The translations under genes and the position numbers were made by a program. Below the pieces are notes generated by a model, which saw nothing but the letters and a program-made list of their open reading frames with translations, did not search any database and was not told the origin of the DNA. This document shows positions 3,804 to 46,060 of a stretch of 64,000 nucleotides of DNA, piece by piece. The stretch is from Giardia intestinalis (taxonomy: Eukaryota). Location: NCBI GenBank assembly GCA_000002435.2, contig CM018789.1; one strand, written 5' to 3'. Position 1 is the stretch's first letter. The number at the start of each line of letters is the position of its first letter.

Positions 3804-4016
3804 TTACTCAACAAGCAATTTCATCTCGTTCTTCCACTGCTCCTGTGCGTCCTGTAGTTGCCTTTGCACGTCCTGTAGAGCTGAGCTAAGAAGCTCGCTA
3901 GCGTGAACATTAGTGCATAGTACGTCGTAAAGGCGGCTGTCAAGAGCAATGCATCTATCCCGTAGAGCTGCTGCTCGGACGATCGCGTCGGCGAGGGAAA
4001 CAGGGCTAGACTGCAT
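3804..4016 (-). CDS. Hypothetical small protein (70 aa), no recognisable domain
   Basis: ORF with an ATG start that fills the gap between the dynein segment and the divergent RING gene; the only support is position and non-overlap. Confidence 0.3.
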   Translation of the reverse strand: MQSSPVSLADAIVRAAALRDRCIALDSRLYDVLCTNVHASELLSSALQDVQRQLQDAQEQWKNEMKLLVE

Positions 4017-4109
4017 TTTTCAATTAGATCTGCTAATCGTTCAGAAGGTTGAGTTGTCTTTCGATAAGGTCTGCGGACGTCTCCAAGTCAGCTAAAAACA
4101 GAATTACAC

Positions 4110-5033
4110 ATGCGCTCCAACTCTGCCGTTCTTGCTCTTGTCGACGCCCTCCGCTGCATAGTGTGTCACGATGTAGCCCGTAAACCCGTGGTACTGGGCT
4201 GTGACCACATCTTCTGCCTCGAGTGCATCCGGAGCATCCCCCCGGATACAGATAACGCCCTCATGTACCGGTGCCCCCTTTGTAGTGCCCCGTACTCTCT
4301 TCAGCGGTGCCAGCCAAATGCGCGGCTAGATTTAATCTCCATGAACTTCCTGGTTCTTCTCGAAACGGTTTTTAAGGCCCCTTCCGCAATTTCACCCGTA
4401 CGGCAAGCCACTCCTGATCGAGCCAGCTTTATAACGGCCAGTTCTTTCATATCGATTAGCGATGAAGACCCTCCCGTTGTCTATCAGAAGCCTCCCTCTC
4501 TTTCCCGCGGCACTCACGATGCAGCCGAGCAACCGGTCGTAAAGCGCCGTCCGCCGGCTATACCTCGTAAGGCCCGCTGTGCTGCTCGTGGAAAGGCCCA
4601 GGCTGGTGACTTCGATTCACTTGCGTACATTCCTTTGTCGGAGTTCTGCAGGGGAGACGCCGTGATGCAGCGGCTGGAAACCCTGCGCGCCTGCGATTGG
4701 CTGCTACGGTTTGGCTTCAGCAGCACCTTCGTCAGCGACCTTCGCAGTGGGGCCAGCGGGATACGGGCCATCAAGCTCTACAACGAGTATCTCCGTCGCT
4801 ACAAGCACCTTCGATCTGATCCCACCCTTGCCCAAAATCCAGACCTCCGCCTCTACGTTACCGACATCGTGCTGCGGACAGAGGCATCCGCGACGGTACC
4901 TGACCCCCAGGCGGCCTCCGACACAGCCATGTACGCCACGCTCCTGAAGGAGCTCCTCGGGCGCAGAGACGCGTGCAGCCGGCTCCTGCGGAAAACGGCA
5001 AAGGGGCTCGGCATTTACTTCAACCAGACTTGA
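4110..5033 (+). CDS. C3HC4 RING-finger protein (putative E3 ubiquitin ligase)
   Basis: N-terminal [27 protein letters not shown]...[10 protein letters not shown] gives the C-x2-C...C-x-H-x2-C-x2-C...C-x2-C RING spacing. ATG at 4110 is preceded by the AT-rich gctaaaaacagaattacac. Confidence 0.7.
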
Positions 5034-5289
5034 AGATCAGGAAGGCCAGCTGGCCGACGTAGAAGTAGATGAACCTCTTTGTCTCATGCGTGATGTAGGA
5101 CCCGAAGTTCTTCCCGACTATGACGTGCCAGGTCGGGTGGTGCTTCTTGTCGAACTCCTTCTTTATGTACGCCGCGATGTCCTTCTCGATGTTGAAGCGC
5201 TCCATGGACTGGATGGCGCAGTCTATCGCGTCCTGCTGCATGTCCTCGGGCATGTCTGCATTCTTGACGTTAACGCTGCGCTCGCTCAT
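5020..5289 (-). CDS. LC8: Dynein light chain LC8 (DYNLL family), 89 aa
   Basis: Near-identical to canonical LC8: [89 protein letters not shown]. Its 3' end overlaps the convergent RING gene by 14 bp. Confidence 0.92.
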
Positions 5290-5374
5290 TTTTGTTTCTA
5301 CGACTTTTTGCTAACGTGTCCACATCGCTTCGTCCAAATTCCTCTGTTTTAAATTATGAAACAATCGTAATTGT

Positions 5375-6064
5375 TTAGACATAGAGGCTAGTGTATAATG
5401 CTTGGGCGGCGGCGCGGCATATCTCCAGGGCAGCGTCGAGGTCCGCCACAGTTATGGGGCAGCTGCCGTGTTTGCTGATGTCTTGCACTTGGCCCTCCCT
5501 GTCCAGCAGTGCGAGCACGGACGCCTCGGCGCTCTCTTCTTCGACTAGAGATGCATCACAAATCCAGCGTCCCCCCAGCTTCCACGCCCCCACAAAAATG
5601 AGCGGCGCGAATGTGCCATCTAACTGTCTGAGGCAGTCGGCAACCGCGATAGAGGCCGTAGTGCAGTAGCTCGGGCCATAGGCCAGCAGAGAGAGGTATA
5701 GTACAACACCTTTGGGCAGGATGGTATTTCGTGACAACATGGAAACAATAGACTGGCAGTAGGCGAGCCGCTCTCTGTTGTGAGGGGCCAGTGAAGTGGG
5801 AATGTATTGTATTTTCGTGTGGGTTGCTTCAACCTCGGCTTCTGCCTCATTAGGCTCCTCTTCCTGTTTCTGCGTATCCAAGGCTCTAGTAAAGCAAAGC
5901 ACCTGTGCCTCTCCAATTTGGCACGATGAGGACGCATCTACTCCGCACAACGTGCCAGAGCGCTCTCGTACCACGGAGCGAAAGGCGTCAGGCGCTCGGT
6001 TGTCGATGCGCACCCCTGACGCTATGGCGTGGGCGAGAAACCTTTGCTCCGCCTGTGATCGCAT
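5375..6064 (-). CDS. Exosome complex RNase PH-like subunit (Rrp41/Rrp46/Mtr3-type fold)
   Basis: The RNase PH domain signature is GVRIDNRAPDAFRSVVRERSGTLCGVDASSSCQIGEAQVLCF (R-x-DGR...G...GSA...G-T-V pattern), at a typical length of 229 aa. I cannot assign the specific subunit. Confidence 0.55.
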   Translation of the reverse strand: MRSQAEQRFLAHAIASGVRIDNRAPDAFRSVVRERSGTLCGVDASSSCQIGEAQVLCFTRALDTQKQEEEPNEAEAEVEATHTKIQYIPTSLAPHNRERLAYCQSIVSMLSRNTILPKGVVLYLSLLAYGPSYCTTASIAVADCLRQLDGTFAPLIFVGAWKLGGRWICDASLVEEESAEASVLALLDREGQVQDISKHGSCPITVADLDAALEICRAAAQALYTSLYV

Positions 6065-7189: not shown

Positions 7190-8801
7190 ATCGGAGTTTG
7201 ATGCGCGGTACCAACTAAAGGAAGTAGTCAATCGAGGAACGTTTCGTACCACCTACCGGGTGTACGATAACCAGAGTGGAGAGCACCTCTATTGCAAGCG
7301 GCTGGATGCATCCAATATGCCGGCCTCTCAGCTTTCGGCCTTCGTTAGTAACATGATGTCCATCTCTGCCCTGCAGGAAAAGGGATACCTGGCCATAGAT
7401 ACGGTGTTTGTGCTTGCGAAGCGCAAGCTTGCATATATAGTAACCCCAGACTTCGGAGACTGTAGCCTGGCACACCTGATCCACACTGCTAGACGACAGC
7501 AGACCTCCTTCGAGGAGTCCTTAGTGTGGCGAGTGCTCGCTCAAATTGCAGCCAAGCTTTATGCCCTCCACTTTCCAGGGGAGCACGGCATACGCCCAGG
7601 GCGAAGGTTCATCCATTGTCAGCTTAAGCCATCAAATATCTTTCTCAGCCAGGCCCTCACGGTCTTCATTGTAGACCCTTTGGGCGTTGCTTTCTCGTCT
7701 TATTGCTGGGCAAACTCAGACGACGACGGATTTCGCTATATCCCCAACGAGGCCCTCACTGCCGCTACCCTTACTTCGAAAATAGACATTTACTCTCTCG
7801 GTTGTGTCCTTTATGAGCTATGCACCCTCTTCTCGCGTACCTTCCACGAGTCCCCTGTCGATTATGTCACCCTTCTGAGAGAGACACACTACAGCTCCCA
7901 GCTGAAGGATCTTGTTCTAGCCATGCTCAGCCCATACCCAGATGCTAGACCGTCGGCGCAGGACCTCATGCACAACACCACCATAGCTCAATATCTAAAG
8001 CTTCAATTTGCGTGCTTGAAGTTGTCCACACCTACGCAGAAGCTCCTCTCGTACACGAATATTGCCCACGACCTTAAGAGCATGGCAGAAGAAAACGAGG
8101 CGTCAACTTACAACCCACATGGTATTCACAGAGACTCACGGGCCGTGTCACCAGCAACTGTTCACAGCCTTGAGACACGGTCTATTGCTCTCGCATCCGA
8201 CGATGCCTCTTCCCCAGCTCAGGATGCATCCCTGCAGCAGCTGGCTACACCATCTATTGACACAGTCGAACAGGGTGTCAATACCCTTTTGGATATGGAA
8301 TTGCACCAAAGGGAATTCTCACTCAATCTTTCTCAGATCTCGCATTCGCAACTTGGGATTGACGAACTATCCAATCTTAAGAATTATTGCAGATTTTTAG
8401 AAAATGAAGTAGCAGCCCTGCGATCGGATTTGATCATTGCAGAGTCTCTCAAGCATAAGTACAACGATGAGCTGACAAACACTCGAGTCCAGCTCATGAA
8501 GTATATAGACTCAGAGGCGGCATCAATGTCCCCTGCACTTGCAGACAAACACAAACACGAACATAGCGAAGATGTGTATTCACTAAAAAATAAAATTAAG
8601 GATCTTGAGATCCAACTATCCATGGAGCGGGCAAACACGTTCATTCTGCGTCGAGAAAATGCAAAACTGATGGAGCATCTCAGGAACATAGACGTGACAA
8701 TGACCACGTGTGCAGAGCAAAATGTCAGTCCAAAGGAAATGGTTGATCAAGTTCGTTCGACCAGTATTGCTGCTAGGCGCGTATGTGCGGAAACAGTGTG
8801 A
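7158..8801 (+). CDS. NEK-like protein kinase fold with a C-terminal coiled coil; predicted catalytically inactive (pseudokinase)
   Basis: Kinase-domain order is YQLKEVVNRGTFRTTYRV (degenerate Gly loop), ...LYCKRL, then a catalytic loop RFIHCQLKPSNIFL where HRD is replaced by HCQ. DFG is replaced by DPLG (FIVDPLGVAF). The C-terminus is a coiled coil (LKNYCRFLENEVAALRSDL...). Start moved from the ORF-track 7095 to the ATG at 7158, which is preceded by gttaaaa. Confidence 0.7.
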   Translation: MAKRGPEDLSESEFDARYQLKEVVNRGTFRTTYRVYDNQSGEHLYCKRLDASNMPASQLSAFVSNMMSISALQEKGYLAIDTVFVLAKRKLAYIVTPDFGDCSLAHLIHTARRQQTSFEESLVWRVLAQIAAKLYALHFPGEHGIRPGRRFIHCQLKPSNIFLSQALTVFIVDPLGVAFSSYCWANSDDDGFRYIPNEALTAATLTSKIDIYSLGCVLYELCTLFSRTFHESPVDYVTLLRETHYSSQLKDLVLAMLSPYPDARPSAQDLMHNTTIAQYLKLQFACLKLSTPTQKLLSYTNIAHDLKSMAEENEASTYNPHGIHRDSRAVSPATVHSLETRSIALASDDASSPAQDASLQQLATPSIDTVEQGVNTLLDMELHQREFSLNLSQISHSQLGIDELSNLKNYCRFLENEVAALRSDLIIAESLKHKYNDELTNTRVQLMKYIDSEAASMSPALADKHKHEHSEDVYSLKNKIKDLEIQLSMERANTFILRRENAKLMEHLRNIDVTMTTCAEQNVSPKEMVDQVRSTSIAARRVCAETV

Positions 8802-8818
8802 GTAGAAGCACTAGCACG

Positions 8819-10873
8819 TCACTCCTTATCAACCATGGCTTCTATCTCTGGCTGGAGCTGATTGTAGAGCTTCTTTCTGCAGAGCTTCTGTGTCGCTGTG
8901 AGACATCCATTTTCTATCGTGAATTCACGTCTCAGCAAGTGTATGTCCTTAAGGTGCATAAACGGCTTCATCCCCGCCTCCGAGTGCACTTTCGTGAGGT
9001 CTTTTACGATTTTCTGCTTAAGGAGACCCATTATGTGATTTTCCACATGCTTCCCCTCTAGAACGGAGAAGGAGCCCAGGGCCTCAACCTGCTCATTGGT
9101 GTGAACAGAGTCGGTTGCTGTATCATCTACGAGCTTGTCATGGAGCCCCGTCAGCGACAGAGGTTGGTCAGGCGAGAAATAGTTGGCCACATTCAGCTTA
9201 GCAAGCAGGCTTTCGCTTGGTACAACAAAAGCATAGAGGTGGTTCGAGTTGGGTGTCTGTGGAATGTAGATGGCACTGATCAGCGCGCTTTGCAGGTACA
9301 TAAGCTCAATTGTCTCTGGACAGACAAATTCACCGTTCTGCAGCTTGAAATTGGTATTAATTCTATCTTTGAGGATCAGCTTGTTGTCCTCATTCATCAG
9401 TCCACAATCACCAGATCTATACCATTCAGTTGACGGCGGAAAGTTATGAATATTTTCATAAAAGGTCTCTCCGGGCACGTAGTACCGGCTAAACATGGAG
9501 CTGCCACGAAGCAGAACCTCGTTCTCGGATGGGTCTATTCTCAGCTCCATATTTGGACACACAACCCCACAGTTTCCAACAGAATAGTCCGACTCGCACT
9601 GCACGGTGACACAGGCACACGTCTCTGTCTGTCCGTAGCCCTGGATGAGGTTACATTGAAAGAAGTCCTGAACAAAAAGGTGCACCTTGGGAGGAAGGGA
9701 CGCACCTCCAGATATCATCAGCTTGAAGTTGACGCCTATCTTGCGCTTCACAAGCCCATAGAGACACCGCCTGGCAAACCTTTGTAGCATGCTGTCTCCC
9801 TTGAGCCCGTAGTGGAACCACCCACGAGTGAGTGGGGAGGCCTCCAGCTTGCTGCGGATTGCCTGGTAGAGAGTCGTGTAGACTTTAGGCACGCCACACA
9901 GGATATCCGGTTTAACGTCTTGCATGTCACGTAAAAGTGATTTGAAGTCTCCTCGCCAGAAATAAACCTTACCACCAATGATTATACCAGTTGCCTGAAT
10001 TACGCGCTCATAGATGTGTGCCATGGGCAAATAGGAAAGGTAGTGAAGTCCTCTCCCGCTGCGCACAAAATCAAGAGGAGTCAGAAGATAGCCGTAACAG
10101 GCAGAGGTGAGCGCGCCGTGCGAGATGATAACGCCCTTTGGCGTAGAAGATGTTCCAGATGTATAAATTAAACTAGAAATGGTACTGGGCGTGGGAGGCA
10201 CCGGCGGTACTACATGGACTGCGGCCGTTACGTACCCAAGAATATCTGTGAGACGGGGGTTTGCCATGCCAGAGCGCGCTAGAAGCTGCTCGAGCTCCTC
10301 CACCTGGTTTCCAGGGATGGCACGCTCAAACTCGAGGTCGGTAGTGAGTATTACGGCCTTGAGGAATGAAAGGTCGACCACTGCTTGCGCAAGCGTTTTA
10401 ACCAACCGCCCAATCTTATCACGGCTTATCACCAGGATGTCAGGCCTGGTTGCGTCGATACAGTACGACATGCCGTGTGCAGACAGCGAATCATAAATGG
10501 GAACAAGCACCATAGACTGTCTGTTACAGGCCTGTTCGGTGATAATCCACTCTGGGCTGTTGCAGGACCAGAGCATGACCATCGATCCGGGCTTCAGACC
10601 GAACTTGGTCACAAATGCTGTCGCAAAACGCTCTATATTAGAACGCATGGTCCTGTAGGTGATACCTTCATAAGCCAGGCGCTCGATTGTCTGGGTCTGC
10701 GCGTTGAAGCGAAGAGGTGAATGGAAATAAACGAGCTCGTCAAGTCGAAGCAGAGAGTACTTCTCCCAAATAGCATAGAGGGTTTCCTCGTCTGCCGGTG
10801 CAGTTACAGGGTCGTCGCCGAGGCCTGTCCTCGACTTGTAGGGGTTCAGATAGATCGTCGGGTGAGGCGTCAT
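8819..10873 (-). CDS. Long-chain fatty-acid-CoA ligase (acyl-CoA synthetase, AMP-binding family)
   Basis: AMP-binding motif IYTSGTSSTPKGVIISH (YTSGTTGxPKGV); GYGQTETCA; the C-terminal half is typical of LACS. The ORF-track start at 11008 is GTG. The first ATG with an AT-rich leader (ctaaaaccaaaaATG) is 10873, giving MTPHPTIYLNPYKS... Confidence 0.85.
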   Translation of the reverse strand: MTPHPTIYLNPYKSRTGLGDDPVTAPADEETLYAIWEKYSLLRLDELVYFHSPLRFNAQTQTIERLAYEGITYRTMRSNIERFATAFVTKFGLKPGSMVMLWSCNSPEWIITEQACNRQSMVLVPIYDSLSAHGMSYCIDATRPDILVISRDKIGRLVKTLAQAVVDLSFLKAVILTTDLEFERAIPGNQVEELEQLLARSGMANPRLTDILGYVTAAVHVVPPVPPTPSTISSLIYTSGTSSTPKGVIISHGALTSACYGYLLTPLDFVRSGRGLHYLSYLPMAHIYERVIQATGIIIGGKVYFWRGDFKSLLRDMQDVKPDILCGVPKVYTTLYQAIRSKLEASPLTRGWFHYGLKGDSMLQRFARRCLYGLVKRKIGVNFKLMISGGASLPPKVHLFVQDFFQCNLIQGYGQTETCACVTVQCESDYSVGNCGVVCPNMELRIDPSENEVLLRGSSMFSRYYVPGETFYENIHNFPPSTEWYRSGDCGLMNEDNKLILKDRINTNFKLQNGEFVCPETIELMYLQSALISAIYIPQTPNSNHLYAFVVPSESLLAKLNVANYFSPDQPLSLTGLHDKLVDDTATDSVHTNEQVEALGSFSVLEGKHVENHIMGLLKQKIVKDLTKVHSEAGMKPFMHLKDIHLLRREFTIENGCLTATQKLCRKKLYNQLQPEIEAMVDKE

Positions 10874-37016: not shown

Positions 37017-37826
37017 CTACCAGATTGCCGTCTCAGTCAGAAATGGTGGGCCTTGGAAACTCCCTGCTCCATCCTCGTCACAAGAGGGTGCAATCATATG
37101 GCAACTAGTGGCCAGTATCGAGAGGGTGTGGAGCCTTGGGAGGAACTCAACGGCCATATCATGGACTTTCTCAACGAGATGAGAAGGAAGGTCATAAAGA
37201 ATCAGTCTCTGCAACGACTGATGAAGGAGTCGGAAGTCTGGAACAGTTGTCAAATAGGTCAGAGGGCCAATTGTAAGACTTACTACCTCGTCAAGTCGCT
37301 CTAAAAGATCTGCAAGCAACTTATTTGTAAATGGCTGAGACTCATTGTAAAGTTCCACAATCTGCTGTGGGTAGTCCATGTTGCCTACTGCCTGTTCGCC
37401 AGGCTTCTTCACGACTTGGAACTGTAGGTTTCGTAGAGCTTGCAGACATAATGTCTCCTCTTTCTTCTGTGTAAAAAGGATGTCCGGTATAGTTGCAAGC
37501 TTGTCGGACAGCTTGGCACTCATAGATCGTCGCTCTAGATAAGATACTGAAGGGTTGGTTGGGGTATGCAGGGCAGCGAGCGCTGAAAGAGACTCATACG
37601 GCTGAATATATTGCTGATACTTTTTTTTCAGCATAGAGGAGGCAGAGGTCGCTGATTTCGACAGTCCAAGTGCTCGAGAAACAGCTGCCCAGGAGAAGTT
37701 GGACGATTGGGTTTTCAGTTGTTGCACCGCGTGACAAAGAGACTCCACGGTCACAGAGACCCCTCCAATGGTCCACTGCACTCCAGGATTTTTCTGAACA
37801 CATAGCTCACATATATTGTTGTCCAT
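37017..37826 (-). CDS. Hypothetical protein, 269 aa; possible Myb/SANT-like N-terminal domain (weak)
   Basis: ATG confirmed at 37826. The N-terminus W-x~30-W pattern (VQWTIGGVSVTVESLCHAVQQL...FSWAAVSRALGLSKSATSASSMLKKKY) resembles a Myb/SANT repeat. Confidence 0.4.
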   Translation of the reverse strand: MDNNICELCVQKNPGVQWTIGGVSVTVESLCHAVQQLKTQSSNFSWAAVSRALGLSKSATSASSMLKKKYQQYIQPYESLSALAALHTPTNPSVSYLERRSMSAKLSDKLATIPDILFTQKKEETLCLQALRNLQFQVVKKPGEQAVGNMDYPQQIVELYNESQPFTNKLLADLLERLDEVVSLTIGPLTYLTTVPDFRLLHQSLQRLILYDLPSHLVEKVHDMAVEFLPRLHTLSILATSCHMIAPSCDEDGAGSFQGPPFLTETAIW

Positions 37827-37840
37827 ATCCTTTTGAAAAA

Positions 37841-38683
37841 CTACCGATTGTGTTTACATCTGTTTACAACTCTGCAGAGCCGACTGGGGGTTGCCGCATA
37901 TGCACCGTATGCTTCCCTGAGCATATATGTGTCGAACTCTGCCTCTGCTAGCTGGATGTTGAAGACACTCGTTGTCTTGTCGGTTGAGGTGCAACCATCT
38001 GCTCCCTTCTGCAGTTGACTGCACAGCTGGCACGTCCTTGCCACGTAGATGGCCTGGATGGTCTTCTCCGGCAGCGCTACTTGATAGATGAAGGGGTACT
38101 GCTCCAGCCTCCCGTTGTCTCCGTACCTAATTCTGCCGCGAACCGCCTCCTCGTCGACATGGAGCGCCAGCCTCCCGAAGTCCTCGAACGTCAGCTCTCG
38201 GATGCTGTGCCTTGGGTTGCAGAACGTGCTGCTGTCCGACAACAGCTTCACGGTTATCGCAGAGTATATCTCGGCCAGGCTGTGATACGACTTTACCCAG
38301 AGGTAGCCGAGGCTGCACACCGGCGCGAGGAGGGTGCTACACAGGAAAAGCGTCCCGGTGTCGTATCTGTGCATGATGTTTCCAAGGACCACCCCGTGGA
38401 GCATCATGTTGATGCACTCGTTGAGCGTCTGGAAGGAGAGAGAGGAGTCCTTCTGGCTCTTGTTCGCCATGAGTTCTCTGAAGTACCGCATCTTCTTGTC
38501 CTTGGCAGTCCTGTCGACGTAGAAGGACGCCTGGATGCAGGGCAGGTGGTGGTAGTAGCTGCATGTCACGAGGGCGAAGATGAACTCGCAGAGAAACAGC
38601 CTTACCCCTACAACATGATCCACTTTACCCCCTGATTGTTTCCAGTGTTGTGTTGTTAGGGCACGCCTATAGATGTGGTTCAA
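37841..38683 (-). CDS. Hypothetical GC3-rich protein; the true 5' end is unresolved
   Basis: The minus frame has strong third-position G/C bias, whereas the antisense plus ORF 38015..38635 has mixed third positions. The track start at 38683 is TTG; the first in-frame ATG is at 38491. The GC3-biased coding signal, including the hydrophobic LFLCEFIFALVTCSYY, continues about 190 nt upstream of that ATG. Confidence 0.45.
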   Translation of the reverse strand: MNHIYRRALTTQHWKQSGGKVDHVVGVRLFLCEFIFALVTCSYYHHLPCIQASFYVDRTAKDKKMRYFRELMANKSQKDSSLSFQTLNECINMMLHGVVLGNIMHRYDTGTLFLCSTLLAPVCSLGYLWVKSYHSLAEIYSAITVKLLSDSSTFCNPRHSIRELTFEDFGRLALHVDEEAVRGRIRYGDNGRLEQYPFIYQVALPEKTIQAIYVARTCQLCSQLQKGADGCTSTDKTTSVFNIQLAEAEFDTYMLREAYGAYAATPSRLCRVVNRCKHNR

Positions 38684-39009
38684 AGATTTTACAAATAGAC
38701 TTACTTCATTTATAACTGTATTTAGAGATGGAGGTAGCTAGTGGTTATGAATGTAGAGCTTTTCTGACACCTTTGCTTATCAAATCTGGTGCGCTCTCTA
38801 AGAGACTTTTATATTTAACCAATACGCGCGCATCGGTTACCGCTCGACCGTAGCCCTCCTCCTCTTGCCCCCTGCGAGGACGCCGCCACTGGCTAGACGC
38901 GGGCGTCGTTGCTGCCCGGCCTTCTCGTGACCTCCTTCCTTCATGAGGTGTGCTCACCCCTCTCCGTCAGCACCACTCTCTGACGCATACACAGCTTGTC
39001 CATCCGGCC

Positions 39010-40220
39010 CTTGAGAAGAGCCACATCACACGAGGAAGGGCGCCGTTTACTCGAGGAGAGAGGCGATTGCGTCGTGGCCATGCCTCCTTGCGATGTCGAG
39101 GGCGGTGGTGCCGGGCGGGAAGCCGAGCCACTCACGGGTGGTCTGCATGCCTTTCTCCTTGTCCATCAGGAGCCTCGCACACTCCAGGTGACCACCCTGC
39201 GCTGCATGCATGAGCGCTGTCCATCCGTTGTTAGTCTTCATGCCGTCTTCTTTGTCTACTAGAAGCCTCACGCAGTCCGAGCAACCGTTGTCGGCTGCGT
39301 GCATGAGGGCAGTCCACCCACTGTTGGCCCTCATCCCGCCTTCCTTGTCCAGTAGAGCCTCCGCACACTCGCGGCGCCCATACTGTGCTGCATACATTAG
39401 GGCGGTCTTCCCATCATCCGTTTTCATGCCACCCTCCCTCTCCAGGAGGAGCTGCACGGACTCCAGTTTGCCGCGCCGTGCTGCGTACATAAGGGCGGTG
39501 GTGCCGTTGTTCCTCCGTTTGCCGCCTTCCCTCTTCAGCAGGAACTTCACGCATTCCGGGTGGCCCCCGTACGCCGCCCGCATGAGCGCGGTCTCTCCAA
39601 GCTTATTCTGTGTGCTACCTTTCATCTTCAGCAGAACCTTCACGGCTCTCAGGTTTCCATACTCTGCTGCTGACATGATGTCGGTCTCGACGAAGCCGTA
39701 TTTCAGCAACAAAAAAGACGAGAGACTCAGCCCGCTCCTCCCTTGTTGGTGGTAAAACTCTGCGGCTTCATCGATGCTCCTATCAGAAGCAGACCCCTCG
39801 GTGTCCTGAGGGCGACGACTCGCCTCCGAATCCCTGAGCACACCACTCGACATTTTTAACTTCGTCTGCTTGCAGGAAGACACTGCCACGGAAACACACA
39901 CTTTGCTCTCTGCTTCACTGAAAACGGTTTGTCAACTGCTGTCCGAGCATCTCCGTGAGAGCCGCCGCGCTGGGTGGGCCGCCCGCTCACCGTCCGGGGT
40001 CCAAGGTTCAGATCTTGAAGCTCGAACTCGTGCCCTCATACAAGGCCTCCTCCCCTGTGGGTAGGCGGGTCTCACGCTCGTTCACTTCTCCAATCCAGGA
40101 CTCAGAACTCGAAGCTTGAGCGTCGAATGTCATGATGATTTACTCCACCCACCGGTTGCTTCCAGTGGTGTGCTGCTGGGGCCTGCCTGCAGGTATGGTC
40201 CAGAGATCCCACGGGCAAGC
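39010..40220. repeat. Left arm of a 1,211-bp perfect inverted duplication; it is the reverse complement of 43142..44352
   Basis: Boundaries were verified base by base at both ends: ...cttctcaag | g versus a on the outside, and gcttgcccgtggg... on the inside. The three encoded ORFs of 284, 181 and 64 aa are identical in both arms. Confidence 0.9.
39047..39901 (-). CDS. Ankyrin-repeat protein, 284 aa, copy A; identical to the 43461..44315 protein
   Basis: Seven ankyrin repeats (TALMRAAYGGHPECVKFLL, TALMYAARRGKLESVQLLL, TALMYAAQYGRRECAEALL, TALMHAADNGCSDCVRLLV, TALMHAAQGGHLECARLLM, TALDIARRHGHDAIASLLE). It is GC3-rich, and 319 bp of identical upstream sequence is included in the repeat. Confidence 0.75.
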   Translation of the reverse strand: MCVSVAVSSCKQTKLKMSSGVLRDSEASRRPQDTEGSASDRSIDEAAEFYHQQGRSGLSLSSFLLLKYGFVETDIMSAAEYGNLRAVKVLLKMKGSTQNKLGETALMRAAYGGHPECVKFLLKREGGKRRNNGTTALMYAARRGKLESVQLLLEREGGMKTDDGKTALMYAAQYGRRECAEALLDKEGGMRANSGWTALMHAADNGCSDCVRLLVDKEDGMKTNNGWTALMHAAQGGHLECARLLMDKEKGMQTTREWLGFPPGTTALDIARRHGHDAIASLLE

Positions 40221-43141
40221 TCTTGCTCAGTCCCTGACTAGTCCGGAGACGAGGGTTGGTCGTGTATCAATATAAGGACCACAGTGGTAGTAGGAGGAGC
40301 TATTGCGTTCCTCAGCTGTTCTACGGGCGTGTGCTCGGTCTAGGTGTGCACATAGGTCCTTTTGGAGATCAAGCCATCTCATGGACTCACTGGTCTACTA
40401 GGGTGCCTCTCCTTGCTCTCCCCTCACGGTGAGTGAAGCTCTGGTCTTTGTTGTCATTCTCAATACTGTCCATGTAGATCAGCAGCAGCTAGCGGGGCTT
40501 TCTCTTCTGGTTGGGATTCAACTCGGTTGTGTGTCCAGTCTTTGCACCTTCTCGGTCGTTGTCGACAGGTCCCAGGGGTGGATTCATTCAGCTGTCAGAA
40601 GTAGGATGACAGGAGACGGTCGCTCTGGGTGACCAGGCTTTCGGCCCGGCCCGTCTGATCAGCTTCGTCGGGTGCTCGTTCGCCTCTGCAGCCATGTGGG
40701 CGATGGCGAAGGCAGCCCGGACAGAGAGCTTCTCAACGTCCACGTGGAGCTCCTCGAGGTGCCCCTTGGACTGGGGTGGAGGGATCCGTCTGTCCCGTAG
40801 ATGATCGGGAGCGTCCCGTCCCTGTACTTCTTGACCTTCTCGTTGTAGTAGGCATCCATCTGGCGGAGCTGGATGACACCCACATCTATCGCCTTGCACT
40901 TGTCGACAAGCCAGATGTCGGGCTTCTGGTTCTGGTCGCTGAGGTGGCTGTGGGTCTCGACTTCCAGTTCCGGTTGAGCTTCCCCGAGACGCGGAGGCAC
41001 AGGCACGCGACGATCATGTCGTGCCTCGTGGTCGAGGGTCCACGCCGTGTGGCAGCCCGGGCAGGTGCCTCTTGTCTGCGCCATGATCGAGCCGCCCTTC
41101 TCCTTCAGGGCCCTTTCCTCCTCGGTCAGCACGCCGCCGCTCTGTCCGGAAGCTGGTGTGCGCGTGAGGAGGCGGTTGAAGTAGGCCCCTTCCCCTGCAG
41201 TGCCTGGCCGTTCACCGGCAGCTCCACCGGGTCTCTGGTCCCCTTGTTGACGTCCAGGGAGGCCCATACCCTCCGCAGCTCGTCGTGGTAGGATCCAGGC
41301 ATGAGCAGGCCCAGGCCGCCCTTCTCCTTCGGGTACGCCAGGAAGTCGACCAGGCGATCGCAGCTTCTGTTGGTTAGTGCTGAAGCCTTGTGCGACGCGT
41401 CTGTTGAGCTCCTCGTAGTCCGCCTTGTCCGATGTTACTTCGACCAGGGGGGCGTAGCTCACCATCGGGACCACGCAGTGACATCAGGATGAGCTTCTGG
41501 TGGGTGGTTATGGGGGCGTTCTCAATCTTCCTCAGGGCAGTCACAGCACCTGCGATGACCTTTGGAGCTTGCAGGAGTGGGGGACGCCGGGTGGTTGAGG
41601 AAGGTCACCTCCTCGCCCGCCATGGTGGACTTGCATTGTCGCTCCTGATCGTCAGGCCCATGGCGGCAGCCTCTGCTGTGGCCAGCTGTGTTATCACACC
41701 TGCTGGGTACCCTTCGTCGTGGAACGCCACGATGTCGTCCGCTAGGCAAGGAAGGTGATGCCCCTCTCCCTGAGGCGTCTCAGGAGGCGCTCGATGGCCA
41801 TGCAGAAGAGGAGCGTGCTGAGCGGGCTGCCCTGGGGGACGCCACAGACCTCGCACTTCACGTCCCGGCTGTGCCTCAGATCGAGGAAGTTCCTGATGTA
41901 GTCGATCAGGACCTTCAGGATGCCCGCCTCGTTCAGGGCTCTGATGACCTCCGCCTTCGGGAGCGAGTTGAAGGCATTCTTTGTGTCGAGGGAGACGGCG
42001 TGCTCCTGTCCTGCTGATGAGCTCGTGGGCCCTCCTCACACCTACCGCGTACGCGTTCTGCTTGAAGGCGATCTGCTCGCATGAGAGGTAGTTGGCATGC
42101 TTGATCAGCCCTTCAGCAGGACGCGGTGGAAGATGTTCGTGACCATCCGCCTATCGCGATCGGGGTATCCGTCGGACTCTTTCGGGATGAGGATCGCCCG
42201 GAACTCGAACATGGCCATCACGTCGGACATCGCCTCGGGGTGGGTGGTCAGCTCGTTGTACGCCTGCGTGAGGTACTTCACGAAGCTGTCGTTCTGCTTC
42301 ATCGCCTTGAGCTGGACCGGCCCGAGGCCAGACACGCCTGAGGCCTTCTTGTTGAGAGTCCTAACAGGGCCTTCCTCATTTCCTCCTCGGTTGCCGCTCC
42401 AGCCCGTCGAGCTCATCGATGGAGGGTAGTCAAGGCCAACGTAGCCTTCGGGGGGACGCACGGGTGTCTCATCAAGGGCGCGGAGAGCCTTAGCAACTGC
42501 TCCGAAGCTCAGCGCGTTGTTCACCCTGTTTGCTATCCGGCGTCTCGCCTTCTCGGGGTCTGGGTCTGCCTTACTCTGGGCCTGCTCTACTGTGTTGCTT
42601 GAGTCCTCTGGGGCTTCCCACCAGGGCGTTCAGGCCCCTGATAGCAGGGAGCGCGACCCCAGTCCCGGCCTGTTCGATGCTCGCGATCATGCGTGCCCCC
42701 TGGTGGATGAGCATAGCGAGCTCTGTCTGGTTCGGTACTGGGCCGGAATGATCAACTTGTCGTCGCCCAGCACTCTGTGTCTGTCATCGTTTGCTTCTCT
42801 CAGGTGCTCGGTTGGTTGCTTGGCGCTCTCGCACGGTAGGCCACAGAGCCAGCGTGTGTGTCCTGCTGAGAGAGTAAACGTCTTTGGAGTGGTCCCCCGA
42901 GTAGAGACTCACGGCTTGCTCTCTGGGTGTCCCTGAGGTACGATTTTGCATTCGTAGTGCAGATCTGGTCCTCGCGGGCTCTCCTTCGCCTCAGGTCCAG
43001 CTGTGCGCACGCCCACGGAACAGCCGAGGAACGCACAGACCCCAGATCCACAAACGGAGGGAGCTCCTCCTATCACCGTTGTGGCTATCGTTACGACCCG
43101 CGGCCAACCCTCATCTCCAGACTGGCCGGGAATTGAGCGAG
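40221..43141 (-). mobile_element. Degenerate ('dead') non-LTR retrotransposon remnant of the R2/CRE/NeSL/Genie clade, carrying reverse transcriptase, a CCHC zinc finger and a restriction-like (REL) endonuclease. Its sense is on the minus strand, with the 5' end near 43141 and the 3' end near 40221.
   Basis: RT motifs, read on the minus strand across three different frames: FRAILIPKESDGYP (42200-42160), LDTKNAFNSL, VCGVPQGSPLSTLLFCMAIE, then ITFLA[TAG]ADDIVAFHDEG. In the last of these the Tyr codon of YADD is a stop and the frame shifts (about 41740). A C-terminal CPGCHTAWTLDHE plus KPDIWLVDKCKAIDVGVI (PD..D...K REL-endo) lies at ~41050-40900. The body is GC-rich (~62%), unlike the flanks. All the ORFs in this interval (40659..41474, 41605..42039, 42105..42524 and others) are fragments. 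Confidence 0.75.
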
Positions 43142-44352
43142 GCTTGCCCGTGGGATCTCTGGACCATACCTGCAGGCAGGCCCCAGCAGCACACCACTGG
43201 AAGCAACCGGTGGGTGGAGTAAATCATCATGACATTCGACGCTCAAGCTTCGAGTTCTGAGTCCTGGATTGGAGAAGTGAACGAGCGTGAGACCCGCCTA
43301 CCCACAGGGGAGGAGGCCTTGTATGAGGGCACGAGTTCGAGCTTCAAGATCTGAACCTTGGACCCCGGACGGTGAGCGGGCGGCCCACCCAGCGCGGCGG
43401 CTCTCACGGAGATGCTCGGACAGCAGTTGACAAACCGTTTTCAGTGAAGCAGAGAGCAAAGTGTGTGTTTCCGTGGCAGTGTCTTCCTGCAAGCAGACGA
43501 AGTTAAAAATGTCGAGTGGTGTGCTCAGGGATTCGGAGGCGAGTCGTCGCCCTCAGGACACCGAGGGGTCTGCTTCTGATAGGAGCATCGATGAAGCCGC
43601 AGAGTTTTACCACCAACAAGGGAGGAGCGGGCTGAGTCTCTCGTCTTTTTTGTTGCTGAAATACGGCTTCGTCGAGACCGACATCATGTCAGCAGCAGAG
43701 TATGGAAACCTGAGAGCCGTGAAGGTTCTGCTGAAGATGAAAGGTAGCACACAGAATAAGCTTGGAGAGACCGCGCTCATGCGGGCGGCGTACGGGGGCC
43801 ACCCGGAATGCGTGAAGTTCCTGCTGAAGAGGGAAGGCGGCAAACGGAGGAACAACGGCACCACCGCCCTTATGTACGCAGCACGGCGCGGCAAACTGGA
43901 GTCCGTGCAGCTCCTCCTGGAGAGGGAGGGTGGCATGAAAACGGATGATGGGAAGACCGCCCTAATGTATGCAGCACAGTATGGGCGCCGCGAGTGTGCG
44001 GAGGCTCTACTGGACAAGGAAGGCGGGATGAGGGCCAACAGTGGGTGGACTGCCCTCATGCACGCAGCCGACAACGGTTGCTCGGACTGCGTGAGGCTTC
44101 TAGTAGACAAAGAAGACGGCATGAAGACTAACAACGGATGGACAGCGCTCATGCATGCAGCGCAGGGTGGTCACCTGGAGTGTGCGAGGCTCCTGATGGA
44201 CAAGGAGAAAGGCATGCAGACCACCCGTGAGTGGCTCGGCTTCCCGCCCGGCACCACCGCCCTCGACATCGCAAGGAGGCATGGCCACGACGCAATCGCC
44301 TCTCTCCTCGAGTAAACGGCGCCCTTCCTCGTGTGATGTGGCTCTTCTCAAG
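43142..44352. repeat. Right arm of the 1,211-bp perfect inverted duplication; it is the reverse complement of 39010..40220
   Basis: See the left arm. About 40 bp of roughly 80%-identical degenerate extension continues inward on both sides (40221-40262 against 43100-43141). Confidence 0.9.
43461..44315 (+). CDS. Ankyrin-repeat protein, 284 aa, copy B; identical to copy A
   Basis: The protein is identical to the 39047..39901 translation. Both copies are transcribed outward, away from the central retroelement. Confidence 0.75.
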   Translation: MCVSVAVSSCKQTKLKMSSGVLRDSEASRRPQDTEGSASDRSIDEAAEFYHQQGRSGLSLSSFLLLKYGFVETDIMSAAEYGNLRAVKVLLKMKGSTQNKLGETALMRAAYGGHPECVKFLLKREGGKRRNNGTTALMYAARRGKLESVQLLLEREGGMKTDDGKTALMYAAQYGRRECAEALLDKEGGMRANSGWTALMHAADNGCSDCVRLLVDKEDGMKTNNGWTALMHAAQGGHLECARLLMDKEKGMQTTREWLGFPPGTTALDIARRHGHDAIASLLE

Positions 44353-44899
44353 AGGCAGAGAGAAAATGTCAGATAGGTGGGTTTGTGTGTGCCGGAAAGC
44401 AGTACAATGGAAATGGTAGCATATAGATATATGGAGATAGCGATATTATTAATGGAGTATGGCGGCAATGCAGAGAATGACGGTGAATACTGGTAATCCA
44501 TAGGTCAGATTCTTAAAGGCTGAAAATCTAAGAGCTCTACTAGGACTGCTTAGCATAGTAGTACGAAGCTCGGATAAGAAATTATAAAGTAATTGATAAG
44601 AGTATAGAAATGAAGATTTACAGACAAGAAGAATAAACTAACGTAATAGCAAATACTACAGGACCATAAGCTGAGTGTATAGCATCATTAAGCAACAGAG
44701 TTCTGTTGGAAGCCAAGTCTACGCCATCACTATAATTTAATCAAGTGTGCTGCTACACATTATAAAAGGAAAGGAGACCTTTGTAGAACCTCCATTATTA
44801 TCACAGCGATCATGACAGTGAGATATCAGGTATTCTAGATCCACAAAGACTCACCAGACGAGTTGAACCTTTGAATGAATGATTTGCAAACACAGACCT

Positions 44900-46060
44900 T
44901 TATAAACGTCTACTAAGGCAAAGAGGCTCTGATAAGAGCGGGTATGCGTCACAGAAGCCAATGCTCTGTGCATACTCCAAACAACTCATCACTCCTTTGC
45001 CATTCCACCGAGAAGCAATGTTACGCTCATCAGGCCTATGTAGTGAAAAGTTCTGGTAGTGAGCTTCGTTGTATGCAGATAACAATGTGACACAAGCCAC
45101 AGATTTCATTAGCGTCGCATAACAGAGCGCGTTGTTATCAAAAACATCATGCTTGCTCAATTCCAACGTGCGAAACTGTTCAGGGCAGTATCGTATCAAG
45201 GCCCGTATGGAGTCCACTTGATCTTTGCAGCAAGCTATCATTATTGCCGTCTGTCCTAATCCGTTCGTTTTACCGAGAAAGCCAGGAGCCATTTCTATAA
45301 GTCTAGCAATGTCCTTAGTAACTGCAGCGCGCATCCAGCGATCGAGATCTAGTGCGTCAGATAGATTCTTGGCATGAGGATCATTTTCTAAATCTTGAGA
45401 AATACTCTCGAGGATGTCTAGTGCAAACAGGTGGTCGATAAAAACAGTTTTTGTACGATCTGTGTTTCGGACATGCCTTTCCAGAACAAAGAACATTCCT
45501 GATTCGTAAGTAGACAAGAACAAGGCCACATCAAAGTGCCGTGCCTCAACGGCAAGCATCAGAGCCGTCTTCCCAGATACCCAGCTCGACGGTTTAGTTC
45601 CGGAGCATTTTATGTGTGCTTCGGAATGCATTTGCAGGCATGCTTCATAAGGAGCAAGGCTTCTCACTAGCTCCAAGAACCCTCCTTGCGCTGCTAGCAT
45701 GAGCGCAGACATTCCATTAGAGTCCTGAAGGCCCAGAAGACATCTTCCGGCGGCTCCTTCTTCTGTCATTGCCCAATTTAGAAGTGTGCTGGCTAGCAAT
45801 TCCTTCTTGGCGCGTAGTAAATACATTAGTGCGCTAGTTCCTCGAGGAAACTCTTCGCCACCAAGGAGAGAATCATCGGTACGGACGGAAAGGTCGAAAG
45901 CGGAGACTCCTGCGAGCAAGTCAGCAGGGGTGGACACTTCTTTAAGATATAGAAAGAGATCGTTTTCACTGGCTAGTGCATCCAAGTGCCCGGTAGCTGG
46001 TAGAGCTTGCGCTGCTATTGCCATGTCCAAACATTCCAGAAAGTCTTCTTTGTCCTCCAT
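44900..46060 (-). CDS. Ankyrin-repeat protein ('protein 21.1' type)
   Basis: Ankyrin cores MSALMLAAQGGFLELVRSLAPYEA, TALMLAVEARHFDVALFLSTYESG, TAIMIACCKDQVDSIRALIRY. The track start is 46075 (ATG, MLDFK); the alternative ATG at 46060 (MEDKEDF) sits directly on the AT-rich palindrome. Both are in frame. Confidence 0.7.
   Translation of the reverse strand: MEDKEDFLECLDMAIAAQALPATGHLDALASENDLFLYLKEVSTPADLLAGVSAFDLSVRTDDSLLGGEEFPRGTSALMYLLRAKKELLASTLLNWAMTEEGAAGRCLLGLQDSNGMSALMLAAQGGFLELVRSLAPYEACLQMHSEAHIKCSGTKPSSWVSGKTALMLAVEARHFDVALFLSTYESGMFFVLERHVRNTDRTKTVFIDHLFALDILESISQDLENDPHAKNLSDALDLDRWMRAAVTKDIARLIEMAPGFLGKTNGLGQTAIMIACCKDQVDSIRALIRYCPEQFRTLELSKHDVFDNNALCYATLMKSVACVTLLSAYNEAHYQNFSLHRPDERNIASRWNGKGVMSCLEYAQSIGFCDAYPLLSEPLCLSRRL

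Follow-up and report, generated by a model that had tools for sequence, protein, structure and literature searches.

The 64-kb window analysed here (64,000 nucleotides (nt) of Giardia intestinalis contig CM018789.1, GenBank assembly GCA_000002435.2) carries on its minus strand a degenerate retrotransposon, embedded in a perfect palindrome of host DNA. The surrounding genes encode kinesin, MYST acetyltransferase, PUF, W2/5MP and ARID proteins together with numerous ankyrin proteins, and no TAGGG telomere repeats occur anywhere in the window, in line with the internal site among housekeeping genes that an initial annotation had described. The contrast in GC content noted there also holds, the element body ranging from 0.60 to 0.65 and the farther neighbours from 0.42 to 0.49, with the adjacent arms of the palindrome being GC-rich as well (0.57-0.61). 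The element lies at the exact centre of the palindrome, with 40221-43141 forming a 2.9-kb spacer, and the two arms match each other over 1211 nt with 0 mismatches in a direct comparison. Both the inverted repeats at the element's termini and the fact that 40221-43141 delimits the spacer of a 1.2-kb perfect host palindrome were absent from the initial annotation.

Each arm contains one ankyrin-repeat open reading frame (ORF; Table 1). The two copies stand head to head, are transcribed away from the element and are separated by 3559-3655 nt. Identity between the arms stops 320 nt upstream of the GTG start codon (367 nt upstream of the ATG) and 37 nt past the stop codon. Inward of the arm edge, complementarity between the terminal repeats is no more than 70-84% over the 115-137 nt that are left, with a 24-nt indel between them, and each side resembles a different variant found in other copies of the element. 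The drop from 100% to about 75% identity occurs within the element's own inverted repeat, 84 nt from its terminus. A repeat finder had placed the outer limits of the arms at 38996 (38996-40220) and 44366 (1225 nt, 100%); the outer 14 nt (38996-39009 and 44353-44366) in fact mismatch. The ankyrin ORF holds five 93-nt (31-codon) repeat units with 65-69% identity (39182-39601, mirrored at 43761-44180), and a 181-aa (amino acid) ORF antisense to it is probably a by-product of high GC content.

Table 1. Features of the palindromic locus, in positions of the 64-kb window.
Feature	Position	Strand	Remarks
Whole GilD/Genie 2-type element	40137..43225	-	3089 nt; sense 3' end ...CCGGTGGGTGGAGTAAA; colinear blastn match to seven DH copies
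5' terminal inverted repeat	43005..43225		Outer 84 nt (43142-43225) within perfect arm
3' terminal inverted repeat	40137..40334		Outer 84 nt (40137-40220) within perfect arm
Degenerate single ORF	40598..42908	-	Frameshift-aware alignment to consensus aa 1-816
N-terminal C2H2-like motif, putative	42777..42854	-	First Cys is Arg in window copy
Reverse transcriptase domain	41627..42197	-	AILIPKESDGY to SLDTKNAFNSL, VCGVPQG, FLA[Y]ADD to GLTIRSD; Pfam RVT_1
TAG in YADD	41744..41746	-	1-nt deletion in Tyr TAT; multiple alignment
CCHC remnant (CPGCH..H, last Cys deleted), RHD, KPDIWLVDKCKAIDVGV, NEKVKKYRD	40818..41063	-	Restriction-like endonuclease motif set
Left arm of perfect inverted repeat	39010..40220		1211 nt; 84 nt element terminus + 1127 nt host flank
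Right arm of perfect inverted repeat	43142..44352		1211 nt; direct comparison and blastn
Ankyrin-repeat ORF, left	39047..39901	-	284 aa from GTG (39901), 268 aa from ATG (39853); Pfam Ank_2 E=1.9e-51
Ankyrin-repeat ORF, right	43461..44315	+	Identical to left copy
3' gene fragment	37841..38616	-	258 codons; other, 99.98%-identical assemblies have the gene as an intact ORF of 642 aa

Translation of the minus strand of 40221-43141 contains all of the peptide strings on which the initial annotation had based its reading of a dead non-LTR retrotransposon (one lacking long terminal repeats). The Pfam profile RVT_1 detects the reverse transcriptase (RT) on an unedited 97-aa ORF piece (42035..41745; E=1e-13), on the frame-stitched RT region of the window copy (E=8.3e-26, with the full profile covered) and on a family consensus (E=4e-29), confirming that the RT is real and not a chance resemblance in a GC-rich region. 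Used as a protein query, the stitched RT returned 19 matches, none above 89% identity and the longest no more than 340 aa; 18 of them are Giardia duodenalis RT or unattributed fragments, the exception being one distant bacterial-type RT. The 271-aa C-terminal ORF matches only Giardia 'reverse transcriptase/endonuclease' fragments (WB, DH and GS), all of 402 aa or less, and all matches with at least 45% identity come from G. duodenalis (WB, DH, GS) or are metagenome/Logan fragments. WB proteins annotated 'Reverse transcriptase/endonuclease, putative' share 80-93% aa identity with the element. Beyond the family, an exhaustive search with the intact RT fragment P0002 found the nearest relatives at 33-39% identity, among them a Spironucleus salmonicida RT and intact Giardia RTs. 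Among the DH proteins P0063, P0070 and P0026 (NCBI), C-terminal fragments of the element carry the source names 'Dihydrolipoamide acyltransferase' and 'Diadenosine tetraphosphatase', and an ankyrin protein is named 'Calmodulin'; these names are apparent annotation errors.

The family consensus is the majority sequence of eight copies, namely the window copy and seven from G. duodenalis DH. It restores most of a single ORF, and joining of the three frames yields a conceptual protein of 816 aa. Towards its C-terminus the consensus features the motifs CPGCHTARTLDHDMNC .. ARHD .. KPDIWLVDKCKAIDVGV .. NEKVKKYRD, and near its N-terminus a putative C2H2-like motif (CWLCG-x12-H-x8-H) that has no Pfam zinc-finger match. 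RVT_1 is the sole Pfam domain on the 816-aa consensus, with neither an integrase nor an AP-endonuclease domain detected by Pfam; a repeat search found no long terminal direct repeats around the element, and an Rfam scan of 37500-45500 gave no match. Among solved structures, the best PDB matches of the consensus are R2 and group II RTs, the top one being the R2 protein 9nl2_A (E=4.2e-12), in which the RT, thumb and CCHC/endonuclease segments follow in the same order. Considered alone, the match of the endonuclease segment to R2 lacks significance (domain i-Evalue 91), with its motifs aligning colinearly. In BLASTP, the consensus aligns in a single stretch of about 600 aa with an intact 883-aa Giardia RT/endonuclease (E=4e-54, 28% identity) and likewise with the Spironucleus RT (E=4e-58, 27-28% identity), and both alignments span the CCHC, RHD, KPD..D and K..KY motifs. 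Because the structure match and the alignments of about 600 aa take in the CCHC and endonuclease motifs, the architecture is, as judged from sequence, that of an R2-like non-LTR retrotransposon with a restriction-like endonuclease, and the family is distinct from the intact Giardia RT families. An AlphaFold2 model of the intact C-terminal fragment P0055, built from a seven-sequence alignment, reached a predicted confidence (pLDDT) of 36 and gave no structural confirmation of the endonuclease fold. The ancestral family encoded one protein of about 816 aa with a possible N-terminal zinc finger, an RT, a CCHC motif and a restriction-like endonuclease and, by analogy with R2-like elements, would have copied itself by target-primed reverse transcription.

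The extent of the element became apparent from seven sister copies in G. duodenalis DH (L001-L007), which were reached via the fragment proteins. All seven match the window copy end to end in blastn with 84-88% nt identity and measure 3.0-3.2 kb each. The homology spans window positions 43223/43225 to 40137/40139 and exceeds the limits of the initial annotation by about 84 nt on either side; 40221 and 43141 had been taken as the ends of the element and are instead the inner edges of the perfect inverted repeat. The proposal that a length of about 2.9 kb reflects 5' truncation has to be abandoned, as all eight copies are colinear and of 3.0-3.2 kb. The window copy is full length for its family of about 3.1 kb, neither terminus nor the N-terminal region having been lost. 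All seven DH copies are non-orthologous to it, and the 64-kb window contains no second RT.

Terminal inverted repeats of roughly 170-220 nt are present in all eight copies (166-213 nt with 83-94% identity in the seven others). An alignment of all termini revealed that the inner boundary of the repeat is identical in every copy and that its outer 5' end has been shortened to varying degrees. In full, the terminus of the element reads (G)TTTACTCCACCCACCGGTTGCTTCC..., and several copies share the 3' terminus ...GGTGGGTGGAGTAAA. As the inner boundary is the same in eight of eight copies whatever the flank, the terminal inverted repeats are part of the element. A poly(A) tail is lacking, and L002, the sole copy with complete ends and unrelated flanks, shows no evident target-site duplication. 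A DNA transposon or foldback element was considered and rejected: no transposase is present, the coding sequence is only that of an RT/endonuclease, and a target-site duplication was not seen.

The window copy is a non-functional, dead retrotransposon. In a frameshift-aware protein-to-DNA alignment with consensus residues 1-816 it shows 92.5% aa identity, 16 frameshifts and 55 deleted residues, and once the frame is corrected no in-frame stop is left. It is the most decayed of the eight copies, the other seven having 7-13 frameshifts. Three internal deletions of 50, 22 and 38 nt each lie between direct repeats of 6-8 nt (microhomology). The 38-nt deletion, at 41028/41029, is shared with L001 and removes the last Cys of the CCHC motif. 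The CCHC plus endonuclease C-terminus of the initial annotation is upheld in its architecture by the alignments, with a CCHC motif that is incomplete. The motifs had also been described as scattered over three frames. The ORF as a whole does wander through all three, but the five quoted motifs occupy only two absolute frames: AILIPKESDGYP, LDTKNAFNSL/VCGVPQGSPLS and CPGCH/KPDIW share one frame with compensating shifts between them, and ADDIVAF lies in another. The TAG and frame change reported at the YADD box are present, arising not from a substitution but from a 1-nt deletion in TAT. The ancestral sequence, GCC TAT GCG GAC GAC, is intact in L001, L007 and fragment P0002, and the T is missing in six of the eight copies (the window copy and five others), a single event that creates both the TAG and the frame change. 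A programmed -1 frameshift at GCC TAG was considered and discarded: its product would read FLA-LADD, a slippery site is lacking, the TAT of sister copies is intact, and 15 other frameshifts are present.

Several further frameshifts are common to different copies in a mosaic rather than tree-like pattern. Sharing of frameshifts means that defective copies either were propagated or exchanged sequence. Substitutions in the window copy relative to the consensus number 24, 28 and 38 at codon positions 1, 2 and 3, a near-even spread as expected for neutral decay. One metagenome copy, L017 (ENA ERZ28627677, scaffold_2536, positions 2-2435), spans the whole 816-aa ORF with two frameshifts and no stop and is far better preserved than the window copy or any copy of the DH assembly.

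The arrangement seen in the window recurs elsewhere in the family. In L004 and L006 (both DH), arms with 98-99% identity continue beyond the end of the element as far as the contig edge, followed in L004 by a VSP gene (3815-6058). L001 (DH) is flanked by arms of at least 2.5 kb that are 76-78% identical, symmetric about the element, and hold convergent VSP genes with their 3' flanks (1-1890 and 8167-9990). The element is therefore found at the symmetry centre of inverted host DNA in four of eight copies (the window copy and three from DH). Such a frequency could be taken to mean that the element inserts at the centre of pre-existing host palindromes, owing to a preference for hairpins or cruciforms, and that the terminal repeats are host sequence. 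We consider this highly improbable: a repeat of about 200 nt is homologous in all copies whatever their flank, has a fixed inner boundary and travels with the element, four copies have unrelated flanks, and in the window perfect arms enclose an element in advanced decay.

The difference in preservation between arms and spacer is informative about order. Because perfect arms enclose a heavily decayed spacer, the duplication, or the last homogenisation of the arms, is younger than the decay of the element. The second of these possibilities corresponds to an old palindrome kept perfect by gene conversion from arm to arm, as in the palindromes of sex chromosomes, with the inner boundary marking the end of a conversion tract. 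Element-centred palindromes can indeed be old, as L001 with its arms of 76-78% identity illustrates, and a contig from an isolate that differs by 0.6% (L008) breaks at the same arm edge, which indicates that the structure predates the split. On the other hand, the arms of L001 were not kept uniform, and conversion would have to account for a very sharp step from 0 differences in 1211 nt to 16-30% divergence in the adjoining 115-137 nt, while leaving the first formation of the palindrome unexplained. We regard such conversion as an unlikely explanation for the locus.

Instead, we favour a DNA-level fold-back or template switch, because the arms are younger than the decay (or were homogenised) and because their inner end falls within the terminal repeat. 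An abrupt drop in identity 84 nt from the terminus, still within the inverted repeat, is what a switch there predicts. The locus thus probably represents a dead GilD/Genie 2-type element, with the flank duplicated later by a fold-back that the element's own inverted repeats seeded. Under such a mechanism, the inverted repeats would have served, after decay of the element, as the point of fold-back or template switching: the 3' end of broken or stalled DNA in one terminal repeat would have paired with the other repeat and been extended outward, giving an inverted copy of the repeat's outer 84 nt and of 1127 nt of flank with the whole ankyrin gene. The outcome would be a perfect 1211-nt palindrome with the element as its 2.9-kb spacer and identical genes head to head. 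The far end would have been joined elsewhere, and either this event or its repair may be the source of the gene-truncating junction at 38616 described below.

The same anatomy, with perfect identity extending outward from a point inside the repeat, is predicted if the inverted duplication was made during insertion itself. In that scenario the 3' end of the complementary DNA (cDNA), lying in the 5' repeat once the first strand has been made, snaps back, anneals to the complementary 3'-repeat cDNA and extends along the target strand, copying the target flank in inverted orientation; the insertion would have to be very recent and a defective copy mobilised in trans. A copy with two frameshifts is known from a metagenome (L017) and intact RTs of other families from Giardia, and the shared frameshifts, including the YADD deletion in six of eight copies, indicate that defective copies were propagated somehow. 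The variable outer 5' ends of the repeat next to a fixed inner boundary also suit this idea. However, no near-identical source is at hand, the closest of eight other copies being about 87-88% identical; mosaic sharing of frameshifts fits recombination or conversion equally well; neither a target-site duplication nor a poly(A) tail is visible; and half of the copies have ordinary unrelated flanks. We give a snap-back at insertion only a small chance.

A perfect inverted duplication of 1.2 kb also raises the concern that it is an artefact of assembly or polishing and that the genome has a single ankyrin copy. The arm ankyrin ORF (with 12 possible start codons) and all of the spacer ORFs were absent from a collection of 15 billion proteins in an exact look-up of 22 ORF variants, so that no other assembly represented there contains any of them, in contrast to the flanking genes, which are present in more than 100 assemblies. 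Consensus polishing can yield perfect identity, and duplicated gene pairs in Giardia were once questioned as assembly artefacts (bioRxiv 10.1101/2022.03.07.483299); the same study confirmed this architecture for VSP pairs in long-read genomes. A chimera from a missed adapter does not look like the locus in the window, with its imperfect inner repeat and its spacer of 2.9 kb.

Short-read assemblies bear on the same question. The right neighbour, a 391-aa ankyrin gene, is found exactly in 167 blocks of such assemblies. Contigs matching the window at 100% identity across 11.7 kb terminate at 44323-44384, at the outer edge of the right arm, and more than 20 independent assemblies with 100% identity break at this edge, as they would at a real repeat with two contexts. 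L008, from an isolate that differs by 0.6%, and L009 together with 19 similar places terminate exactly 30 nt inside the right arm. We take the Logan assemblies to use k=31, and a k=31 graph would end 30 nt into a sequence with two contexts. The breaks at the arm edge support a real duplication, and an assembly artefact appears very unlikely to us.

On the left side, the palindrome adjoins a second rearrangement. L013 and L014, two assemblies with 99.98% identity to the window, part from it at 38616/38617, where they carry an intact 642-aa gene (8058-9986). Of this gene, only the last 258 codons are left in the window and in more than 20 other runs, joined to an unmatched stretch of 393 nt (38617-39009) and, beyond it, the palindrome; the missing part of the gene is found nowhere in the 64-kb window. 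The runs with the two alleles at 38616 are SRR10063833/26 as against SRR10662887 and others. A gene-truncating structural variant between near-identical assemblies thus lies 394 nt to the left of the palindrome.

Several points weigh against a fold-back seeded by a GilD/Genie 2-type element. We infer the mechanism from the anatomy, and arm-to-arm conversion could keep an old palindrome perfect. Left-flank contigs that follow the window arrangement stop at 38901, which is 109 nt before the arm and not 30 nt inside it; this stop could be due to a repeat nearby, to heterozygosity or to poor coverage where the sequence is GC-rich. The inner junctions of the palindrome lack independent confirmation because the arm and spacer ORFs are absent from the protein collection. 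A search for a single-copy orthologue of the ankyrin gene gave no match above 48% identity, so that either arm may be the original. Four of the eight copies have no palindromic flanks, so the terminal repeats do not always duplicate their surroundings, and in L004 and L006 the palindromic flanks extend to the contig ends, so that assembly fold-backs could account for part of them. Finally, the assignment to GilD/Genie 2 is by features and published description, every feature tested being in agreement.

GilD was described by Arkhipova and Morrison in 2001 and Genie 2 by Burke et al. in 2002, from Giardia lamblia, and Burke et al. reportedly found inverted repeats of up to 172 bp in Genie 2; the literature searched, which did not cover the primary GilD and Genie papers, yielded no usable description of Genie 2 inverted repeats. 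The window element resembles GilD/Genie 2 in its Giardia host, the unit of about 3 kb, its internal site, its frameshifts, substitutions and microhomology deletions, its terminal inverted repeats, and its CCHC motif with a restriction-like endonuclease, and some copies of its family (L001 and L004) adjoin VSP genes. One account has GilD copies disrupted by deletions at microhomologies and located near VSP genes (PMC2861651). Unlike these, the window copy is situated among ankyrin and housekeeping genes, and L017 with its two frameshifts shows the family to be less uniformly degraded than the term 'dead' suggests. In GilM and GilT (Genie 1), elements of about 5.5-6 kb arranged head to tail in arrays at telomeres, the ORFs are intact, and the intact 883-aa Giardia RT presumably belongs to these families. 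The overall protein plan of the window-element consensus is like theirs, with about 600 aa aligned at 28% identity. GilM measures 5,474 bp, encodes an RT and has several copies near a chromosome end (PMC7000408), whereas the window element is 3.1 kb long, solitary, internal and dead and has inverted termini. With close homologues confined to G. duodenalis fragments of up to 402 aa and only 28% identity to an intact Giardia RT, the initial placement in a degenerate internal family rather than an intact telomeric one was correct. Elements of the R2/CRE/NeSL group likewise have a single ORF with an RT followed by CCHC, RHD/N, (K/R)PD..D and K..KY motifs; the window element differs from them in having neither an association with ribosomal DNA (rDNA) nor evident site specificity, and terminal inverted repeats are unusual for this class.

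The palindrome itself has close counterparts in the VSP family. In WB, 14 identical inverted vsp pairs (vsp1267 and 13 others) with spacers of 2190-3847 bp were reported by Adam et al. 2010; their identity is lost abruptly 139-729 bp away from the ORFs, the pairs coincide with contig ends, and the arrangement was called a cryptic observation, with the spacer described only as non-coding DNA and no retroelement mentioned (PMC2996952). Relics of non-LTR retrotransposons were later found between duplicated VSP/CRMP pairs, and a duplication 'driven by transposition' was proposed (bioRxiv 10.1101/2022.03.07.483299). The locus described here shares with the vsp pairs the identical inverted ORFs about 3 kb apart (3559-3655 nt), the abrupt end of identity and the ends of short-read contigs, and with the duplicated VSP/CRMP pairs the retrotransposon relic between the copies. 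It differs in that the duplicated gene is an ankyrin-repeat (21.1-type) gene and that the breakpoint is mapped into the inverted repeat of the relic. Fold-back from short inverted repeats generates palindromic duplications in other systems, namely the Tetrahymena rDNA palindrome and palindromic amplification in yeast and mammals. Like those, the window palindrome combines a central short inverted repeat, a unique spacer, long perfect arms and a nearby chromosomal breakpoint; unlike them, its seeding repeat is provided by retrotransposon termini, in Giardia with a mechanism that is conjectured.

The element family (2001-2002), the layout of the vsp pairs and the relics between pairs (in a preprint) were known already, and the element itself is ordinary and has no present function of its own, its effect being structural, on gene duplication and genome instability. 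What is new is a non-VSP (ankyrin) example, an identity breakpoint in the relic's inverted repeat and the adjacent polymorphic rearrangement junction. The context outweighs the element, since three other family copies also centre inverted host DNA, two of them beside VSP genes (L001 and L004). For annotators, the practical consequence, should the link to inverted gene pairs be general, would be a warning that short-read assemblies break at such palindromes and that the spacers are remnants of retroelements. We tentatively raise the possibility, well short of an even chance in our estimation, that the terminal inverted repeats of this element are a general engine of Giardia's identical inverted gene pairs (VSP, CRMP and ankyrin), each pair arising from the fold-back of a DNA or cDNA end within the repeat. 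If the link were general, it would provide a concrete, testable mechanism for duplicating members of surface-antigen and other multigene families in Giardia and would explain why rearrangement breakpoints cluster at such sites. In that case, a family written off as dead would be driving antigen-gene duplication and recent structural variation between near-identical isolates.

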